From Escherichia phage vB_EcoM_CRJP21: a stretch of DNA of 64,000 nucleotides. The stretch is from sequence record OQ708376.1; one strand, given 5' to 3'. The notes under the pieces are model-generated. The model was not told the origin of the DNA. It saw only the letters and a program-made list of their open reading frames with translations, and did no database searches. Of the stretch, positions 58,537-59,649 are shown in pieces. Both the position numbers and the translations under genes were made by a program. Position 1 is the stretch's first letter; each line of letters begins with the position of its first letter.

Positions 58537-59649
58537 ATGAAAAAGTATTTGGTTGGTGGCTACGTCCGTGACCGTTTAATGGGTCTTCGTGCAAAAGACA
58601 AAGATTATGTCATTGTCGGAGCAACTGAATCTGATATTAAGTACTTGCAAAGTATTGGCTATAAGCAAGTAGGTAAGGATTTCCCTGTATATCTAAGTCC
58701 AGAAGGTAATGAACACGCATTAGCCCGTACTGAGCGTAAAACTGGTACTGGATATGGTGGCTTTGAAGTGGATACAAAAGGCGTAACACTCGAACAAGAT
58801 TTGTATCGCCGTGACCTAACAATAAATGCAATTTCGTATGATCCAGTACTACAAATTCACATTGACCCATACGGTGGTAAAGCTGATATCAAGAACAAGG
58901 TACTACGTCATGTGTCTGACCATTTTAAAGAAGATCCATTACGTGTGTTACGTCTTGCTCGATTTGCTACTCGTTATTCTGACTTTACTATCCATGAAAG
59001 CACTGAGGAACTCGCTATTGGAATGGTCAATAGTGGTGAGCTAAATCATCTTGTTCCTGACCGTGTGTTTGTGGAATTCGAAAAAGCATTTTCCGAAGAA
59101 AAGCCTGCAAAGTTCCTTAAGACGCTAAGTAAATTTGGTTATTACGAAAAGGTGTTTAATACATCTTTGACCAAAAAGAATTTAGACCTTATTGATTATA
59201 TTGCAGAGAACTGTACAGATGTATATAAACCATATTTTCTGTGGTCTATTCTTCTTGAAAATGAAGAAGTAAATAATGATTCAGTACTTAACGGTGCTAT
59301 TAAAGTTCCAGTTAAGTATGTTAAATTTAGTAATTATATCAAACGTTTCCGTGATGATATCAAAACATTCCGTAAAAAGACCCCTATTGAAATGGGTAAT
59401 ATTTTATTGGATATGAATATTAAAAATAACGGAGGTGAAGAATTCCTTTATAAAGTTTTGGAATACTTCATTTTGCGAAAAGAAATTGATTTAGAACTTG
59501 AAGATCTAATTATTAAAGTTTATGATCGTTATACTGATGTTGAATTGCCTGATATTCAGCAAATGGTCAAAGATGGTGAACTTGAAACGTCAGAAATTCG
59601 TGATTTTGTTTGTGAACTTCGTTACGAAGCAATCAAACAAATGTTCTAA
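58537..59649 (+). CDS. tRNA nucleotidyltransferase (CCA-adding enzyme), class II
   Basis: GGYVRDRLMG, DKDYVIVG, RRDLTINAI head-domain motifs; 370 aa, no HD domain evident. Confidence 0.8.
   Translation: MKKYLVGGYVRDRLMGLRAKDKDYVIVGATESDIKYLQSIGYKQVGKDFPVYLSPEGNEHALARTERKTGTGYGGFEVDTKGVTLEQDLYRRDLTINAISYDPVLQIHIDPYGGKADIKNKVLRHVSDHFKEDPLRVLRLARFATRYSDFTIHESTEELAIGMVNSGELNHLVPDRVFVEFEKAFSEEKPAKFLKTLSKFGYYEKVFNTSLTKKNLDLIDYIAENCTDVYKPYFLWSILLENEEVNNDSVLNGAIKVPVKYVKFSNYIKRFRDDIKTFRKKTPIEMGNILLDMNIKNNGGEEFLYKVLEYFILRKEIDLELEDLIIKVYDRYTDVELPDIQQMVKDGELETSEIRDFVCELRYEAIKQMF

Follow-up and report, generated by a model that had tools for sequence, protein, structure and literature searches.

The stretch of Escherichia phage vB_EcoM_CRJP21 analysed here (OQ708376.1; 64,000 nt, hereafter the window) carries on its plus strand, at 58537..59649, a cca-like gene for a 370-aa class II tRNA nucleotidyltransferase, defined by its ORF and by Pfam, NCBIfam and PHROG matches. 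The ORF starts with ATG, ends with a stop codon at 59647-59649 and is exactly the one, of about 370 aa, that an earlier note made from the sequence alone had delimited. A Shine-Dalgarno-like stretch, GGGGGA, lies 6-11 nt 5' of the ATG, which is itself 1 nt past the stop codon of a preceding 40-aa ORF; a scan for promoters and terminators around the gene returned the same counts as in shuffled controls.

The 3 kb around cca share 99.8% identity with Escherichia phage vB_EcoM_phAPEC6 and 97-99.7% with SHEFM2K, SP27, slurp01 and 121Q, all of them jumbo myoviruses of the genus Asteriusvirus with genomes near 350 kb; judged by its sequence, the phage from which the window comes is an Asteriusvirus jumbo phage of the phAPEC6/121Q group. 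When the window is compared with phAPEC6 (MK817115.1), the coordinates shift by about 1.35 kb from the cca to the Rnl1 region, so that the two genomes must differ by at least one indel in the interval ~4500-57500.

The gene belongs to a block rich in translation- and nucleotide-related functions (55629-62184, +), in which follow one another a lysozyme gene, a gene for an S30AE/HPF-like ribosome-associated protein (56605-56937, +), small ORFs, cca, a Nudix gene, a glutaredoxin gene and a gene for a weakly recognised macro-domain protein (60990-61466, +). The same order is kept in K64-1 (Alcyoneusvirus), CBB (Mimasvirus) and fENko-Kae01 and is, thus, conserved in four genera of Rak2-like jumbo phages, which may simply reflect the collinearity of these genomes. 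We dropped the idea of a functional cca-Nudix-macro module acting at the tRNA 3' end, as collinearity could explain the gene order and there is a frameshift in the Nudix gene of the window. The block is closed by a 125-aa ORF (61807-62184), whose counterpart in fENko-Kae01 has been noted as Pth2-like by HHpred.

The Nudix gene (59727-60159, +) lies directly downstream of cca. Its first 21 codons, MRYSCGIIFYRDGQILIGHTT (ATG at 59727), are out of frame with the part encoding the Nudix box (ORF 59758/59761..60159), and alignment with the intact orthologues of K64-1, CBB and fENko-Kae01 places a 1-nt insertion near 59791; the phAPEC6 annotation covers the downstream 399 nt only. The gene may be a pseudogene, make a protein truncated at its N-terminus or rely on a programmed frameshift. 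Directly upstream of cca, three tandem small ORFs (56991..57386, 57576..57992 and 57979..58401, all +) look like paralogues, sharing the C-terminal pattern GTLP..., F/MxIxDTFGIDF/Y...Y..I; none of the three has a Pfam match.

Two RNA-repair genes are also present in the window, both recognised by Pfam and annotated as such in phAPEC6: one for an Rnl1-type RNA ligase (3321..4463, +; RNA_lig_T4_1 and T4_Rnl1_C) and one for a PseT-type polynucleotide 5'-kinase/3'-phosphatase, Pnkp (5560..6492, +; HAD_PNKP and AAA_33). The earlier note had read cca together with this pair; the pair is indeed there, but 52-55 kb upstream of cca, so that neither the co-location and co-transcription of a T4-type repair module nor any operon-level link between cca and Rnl1/Pnkp is found.

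Catalytic domains and flexible loop

The head and neck domains, which form the catalytic half of the protein (residues 1-207; 58537..59157, +), match positions 1-207 of the E. coli-type Cca model NF008137, and a BLASTP search against E. coli proteins, the alignment with bacterial Cca that had been proposed as a check, aligns them with residues 1-207 of E. coli Cca at 52% identity (E=3e-65). Pfam recognises a PolyA_pol head (PF01743, residues 4-124, E=3e-18, 66.8 bits for a cut-off of 23) followed by PolyA_pol_RNAbd (PF12627, residues 149-207, 33.2 bits), and PHROG 2244, "tRNA nucleotidyltransferase", matches over the full length (3e-116).

The motifs GGYVRD, DxD and RRDLTINA, from which a class II tRNA nucleotidyltransferase had been proposed in the earlier note, are all present, at residues 7-12, D21-K-D23 and 91-98, respectively. 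We assessed their conservation by aligning 52 full-length homologues (39-93% identity). In motif A (58555..58605, +), which comprises G7-G8-Y-V-R11-D12 and the carboxylates D21 and D23, residues G7, G8, R11, D12 and D23 are invariant and D21 is nearly so, being conserved in at least 90% of the homologues; D21 and D23 occupy positions identical to those of the catalytic carboxylates D21/D23 of E. coli Cca (PMC6468291). Motif B (residues 91-98; 58807..58830, +) has R91, R92, D93, T95 and N97 invariant, and motif C, D110-PYGGKA-D117 (58864..58887, +), D110, P111, G114 and D117. Also invariant are motif D, EDPLR (132-136), an instance of the EDxxR that serves as amino-acid template (PMC2532741), and motif E, RLARF (139-143), which together span 58930..58965 (+). 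That nearly all motif residues are invariant across the 52 homologues indicates purifying selection on catalysis. With motif A, motifs B-E and a helical neck, body and tail, the protein has the makings of a class II tRNA nucleotidyltransferase, an assignment on which Pfam, NCBIfam, PHROG, the alignments and the predicted fold agree.

The flexible loop between R67 and F76 (58735..58764, +) reads RKTGTGYGGF, versus RKSGSGYTGF in E. coli Cca (R65-F74), and its residues G72 and Y73, equivalent to E. coli G70 and Y71, are invariant in the family, as expected of enzymes adding the complete CCA. In E. coli Cca, the substitutions G70A and Y71A, deletion of the loop or its replacement all leave an enzyme capable of CC-addition only (PMC2532741). 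As far as can be judged from the protein sequence, the invariant loop argues for a complete CCA-adding enzyme over a CC-adding one.

C-terminal half and the HD site

Residues 208-370 (59158..59646, +) form an all-helical body and tail according to hhalign, AlphaFold2 and Foldseek, and are a degenerate remnant of the HD region of Cca, without its H/HD/D ligands and with an NNGGEEF motif. The remark in the earlier note that no HD phosphohydrolase domain is obvious proved right: no HD domain of the 370-aa protein is matched by Pfam, there is no HD dipeptide anywhere in the protein and no His beyond residue 171, and no His is conserved in the C-terminus of the homologue family. The H...HD...D motif characteristic of a multifunctional CCA protein is, thus, missing.

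Neither BLASTP with E. coli Cca nor phmmer against the PDB detected similarity past about residue 237. A profile comparison with hhalign did align columns 30-165 of the phage C-terminus with columns 62-203 of the Cca C-terminus (roughly Cca 266-407; 96.4% probability, E=1e-9), a match that covers only the part of Cca distal to HDxGK: the stretch of ~60 Cca residues with H...HDxGK faces only about 29 phage residues that cannot be aligned, and the later E-A-D ligand position of Cca is not conserved in the phage protein. Between the C-terminal halves of the phage protein and Cca, identity is only about 14%, which is why NF008137, matched at positions 1-207 of 409 only, scores 272.6 bits and does not reach its equivalog cut-off of 451. 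A second group of HD-less homologues, of about 366 aa, has the phage-type C-terminus (96.7% probability).

The AlphaFold2 model, built from the 52-sequence alignment (pLDDT 93.4, pTM 0.86), is all-helical over residues 213-369. Among the top matches retrieved by Foldseek from the PDB, we found only class II CCA-adding enzymes, A-adding enzymes and poly(A) polymerases (PAP), the best being full-length CCA-adding enzymes, such as that of T. maritima (3H38, E=2.5e-15, TM 0.73 over 401 columns; TM 0.69 for the tRNA complex 5HC9). On the sequence comparisons and the predicted model, the phage protein is, thus, a head-neck-body-tail CCA enzyme in which the HD active site has been lost and a Cca-type body and tail have been kept. 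A motif of the C-terminal half, IKNNGGEEFLY (residues ~294-303; N297, G299 and E301 nearly invariant), is strongly conserved in the phage family and has no counterpart in E. coli Cca.

The HD domain of Cca reportedly has 2',3'-cyclic phosphodiesterase, phosphatase and nucleotidase activities (Yakunin et al. 2004), all of which are predicted to be absent from a phage enzyme devoid of that domain. As the HD motif is lost, the name "multifunctional CCA protein", which the product of cca bears in phAPEC6, overreaches; as read from the sequence, the phosphodiesterase/phosphatase part of such annotations in phAPEC6 and CBB is not supported, and the labels "multifunctional CCA protein/phosphatase" in the phage family should become HD-less CCA-adding enzyme.

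Phage tRNA genes

There is no tRNA gene within the window. To follow the suggestion that the enzyme matures phage tRNAs encoded elsewhere in the genome, we surveyed the complete 351,992-bp genome of phage ECO103 4-12-1 (OR844650.1; 99.1% identical), where the seven tRNA genes found by ARAGORN form a single 3.8-kb cluster (31069-34895, minus strand, of one genome piece). Three of them encode CCA (Ser-TGA, Arg-TCT and a 90-nt "Met"-CAT) and four do not, their ends reading ...T-C-aaaaa for Gly-TCC, ...G-C-aaatt for Ser-ACT, ...G-C-ataaa for Asn-GTT and ...A-C-aaaat for Thr-TGT. The CCA pattern of phAPEC6 is identical; SHEFM2K and 121Q also have Gly, Ser-ACT and Thr genes without CCA, together with a different Asn allele that encodes it. 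The search, thus, turned up six to seven tRNA genes in related genomes, three to four of them without encoded CCA, which gives direct support to the proposed maturation role: as their genes lack CCA, these tRNAs need the post-transcriptional addition of at least C75 and A76.

Some features of these genes deserve mention for themselves. In all four CCA-less genes, C74 is retained and an A-rich trailer comes next; the anticodon of one tRNA-Ser is ACT (A34); and the 90-nt "tRNA-Met" (CAT) of ECO103 and phAPEC6 has a long, largely unpaired variable region, while SHEFM2K and 121Q have a normal tRNA-Met of 75 nt.

One has to keep in mind that CCA is encoded in every tRNA gene of the host E. coli, whose own Cca is dispensable and serves in repair (PMC6468291). 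The tRNAs of phage T4 that lack CCA need tRNA nucleotidyltransferase, and RNase P cuts them better once CCA is present (PMC11143913). In fENko-Kae01, a more distant relative with a cca orthologue of 59% identity, six of the seven tRNA genes found by ARAGORN in the fetched cluster encode CCA, so that there may be more to the retention of the gene than tRNA maturation.

Predicted function, alternatives and known relatives

The gene product is most likely an ATP(CTP):tRNA nucleotidyltransferase of class II, the bacterial type, that belongs to the gammaproteobacterial Cca lineage and would build or repair the CCA end of tRNAs. The body and tail would dock the tRNA elbow, and D21 and D23 would perform a two-metal nucleotidyl transfer; a single pocket with the EDPLR template would pick CTP and then ATP, the loop R67-F76 switching the specificity to ATP at position 76, and no nucleic-acid template would be used. 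The enzyme would finish the 3' end of each phage tRNA encoded without CCA (Gly-UCC, Thr-UGU and Ser-ACU genus-wide, Asn-GUU in the phAPEC6 type) and would re-add CCA to the nibbled tails of host and phage tRNAs. LC-MS/MS of a phage preparation detected the orthologue of fENko-Kae01, so that this protein is made. Against CCA addition stand the score below the NCBIfam equivalog cut-off, the high divergence here of C-terminal regions known to set specificity (PMC2532741), and a host that already provides Cca.

Telling a CCA-adding enzyme from a poly(A) polymerase was not possible from the motifs cited in the earlier note, as both kinds of enzyme carry them, and PcnB, the E. coli poly(A) polymerase I, also has EDxxR and a loop (PMC2532741). 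A PcnB-like polymerase tagging RNAs for decay would account for the EDxxR and for the Pfam "PolyA_pol" head, and some related phage genes are labelled "tRNA nucleotidyltransferase/poly(A) polymerase". We, nevertheless, hold it to be highly improbable: PcnB is only 31% identical by BLASTP (E=1e-16), versus 52% for Cca; the PcnB models TIGR01942 and NF008634 give 95.4 and 49.7 bits for cut-offs of 305.65 and 702, whereas the protein scores 272.6 bits with NF008137 and 234, 205 and 196 bits with other CCA equivalogs; and the alignment of the family profile covers 355 columns with E. coli Cca (1-369 to 1-403, E=1e-76), versus 261 with PcnB (E=3e-20). The PAP signature reported by Martin & Keller (2004), [LIV][LIV]G[RK][RK]F.., matches PcnB (LVGRRFRLAHV) and has no match in the phage protein, which reads the Cca-type QVGKDFPVYLS at that site. 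The C-terminus has no similarity to that of PcnB either (hhalign, 0.9% probability). Grouping with poly(A) polymerases, the outcome named in the earlier note as fatal to its assignment, is, thus, not what BLASTP, NCBIfam and the family profile give. An enzyme of restricted specificity, adding only A or only CC, is somewhat less improbable, though still quite unlikely. It could have arisen from the strongly diverged C-terminal half, and the C-terminal part influences specificity in class II enzymes, which is why a Cca-derived C-terminus matters: a PAP core fused to the Cca C-terminus makes CCA (PMC2532741), and C-terminal regions set specificity in A-adding enzymes as well as in such PAP/CCA chimeras (PMC2532741; Tretbar 2011, as cited in PMC6468291). 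Moreover, since every CCA-less phage tRNA gene keeps C74, the enzyme may have to add fewer than three nucleotides. These tRNAs, however, need both C75 and A76, hence the addition of both C and A; the loop, absent from CC-adding enzymes, is here and invariant; the A-adding NCBIfam model scores only 60 bits; and E. coli-type enzymes, which add the complete CCA, are by far the nearest relatives.

The CCA-adding activity could also be granted and its chief selective role sought elsewhere, in counter-defence and repair: the enzyme would rebuild CCA tails cut by host nucleases, for example by RNase T-type turnover or by the CCA-tail-cleaving Cas12a3, and tRNA maturation would be secondary. We regard this as a possibility to be kept in mind, if a rather doubtful one. 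Three observations speak for it, namely that fENko-Kae01 keeps its orthologue though six of its seven tRNA genes encode CCA, that Rnl1 and Pnkp are in the same genome, and that jumbo-phage surveys put the CCA enzyme among RNA-repair genes (PMC7824862); in addition, Cas12a3 cleaves tRNA 3' CCA tails, and its authors call the means of viral resistance unknown (PMC12851939). Against it, cca has no genomic linkage to the distant Rnl1 and Pnkp genes, the discriminator base is often lost too upon Cas12a3 cleavage (ACCA) and a CCA enzyme cannot restore it (PMC12851939), Cas12a3 was not reported from E. coli in the literature consulted and nothing links it to this host, and the conserved CCA-less tRNA genes are a sufficient housekeeping reason to carry cca. 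That the HD-less phage enzyme might be an outright anti-defence factor, the missing viral resistance to CCA-tail-clipping effectors such as Cas12a3, a role for which it readily suggests itself, is more speculative still, and we consider it unlikely; our literature search for work connecting phage CCA enzymes directly with anti-phage systems gave nothing relevant. A cut by a RuvC nuclease should leave a 3'-OH end, for which an HD-less enzyme would need no phosphatase. Cas12a3 does cut via a RuvC nuclease site, and phage tRNAs cannot evade its cleavage, according to a 2026 Nature paper (PMC12851939). CCA-tail-cleaving immunity is, thus, a concrete and testable reason to study phage CCA enzymes.

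The gene and the role we favour, CCA addition to phage tRNAs, are already in databases and in the literature. The protein is 100% identical to the "tRNA nucleotidyltransferase" of SHEFM2K and to the "CCA tRNA nucleotidyltransferase" of Salmonella phage SD-15_S21; the RaK2 genome paper (2013) described gp031 as a putative CCA-adding enzyme that could mature phage tRNAs and proposed a part in repair alongside Pnk and an RNA ligase (PMC3622015), and a 2021 jumbo-phage paper proposes like roles (PMC7824862). With matches in 496 phage records, CCA enzymes are widespread among phages, and our literature search found none characterised biochemically. What our analysis adds is the loss of the HD site with retention of a Cca-type body and tail, the explicit separation from PAP and from CC-adding enzymes, and the three to four phage tRNA genes of the genus without encoded CCA. 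With such an enzyme, the jumbo phage would not need its host to finish tRNA maturation, in keeping with the absence of CCA from half of its tRNA genes and with a host Cca that serves for repair only.

Among known systems, the class II structures (T. maritima 3H37/3H38/5HC9, B. stearothermophilus 1MIV and the A-adding enzyme of A. aeolicus, 1VFG/4WBY) share the head-neck-body-tail architecture of the phage model (Foldseek TM 0.64-0.73 over about 390-400 columns, probability 1.00), although they are only 21-26% identical to the phage protein and the match detectable by sequence runs only from residue 1 to about 237. PcnB has the class II nucleotidyltransferase core and EDxxR in common with it and differs by its low identity, its PAP signature and its type of C-terminus. 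The Rak2-like orthologues (PHROG 2244; RaK2 gp031, K64-1 gp036, CBB_192, GAP32 and ENKO_222 of fENko-Kae01) are full-length, 59-69% identical and set in the same neighbourhood, with no substantive difference apart from the label "multifunctional ... phosphatase" of some records, which their sequence does not support. E. coli Cca (b3056; NF008137/PRK10885) shares the head and neck, with D21/D23, motifs A-E and the loop positions identical, and its distal C-terminal helices are remotely homologous to those of the phage protein, which is 42 aa shorter and has the H...HD segment deleted or replaced. As for phage T4, it too has tRNA genes without CCA in a host whose own genes all encode it; T4, however, uses the host BN nuclease, the host Cca and RNase P, whereas the phage analysed here carries its own cca.
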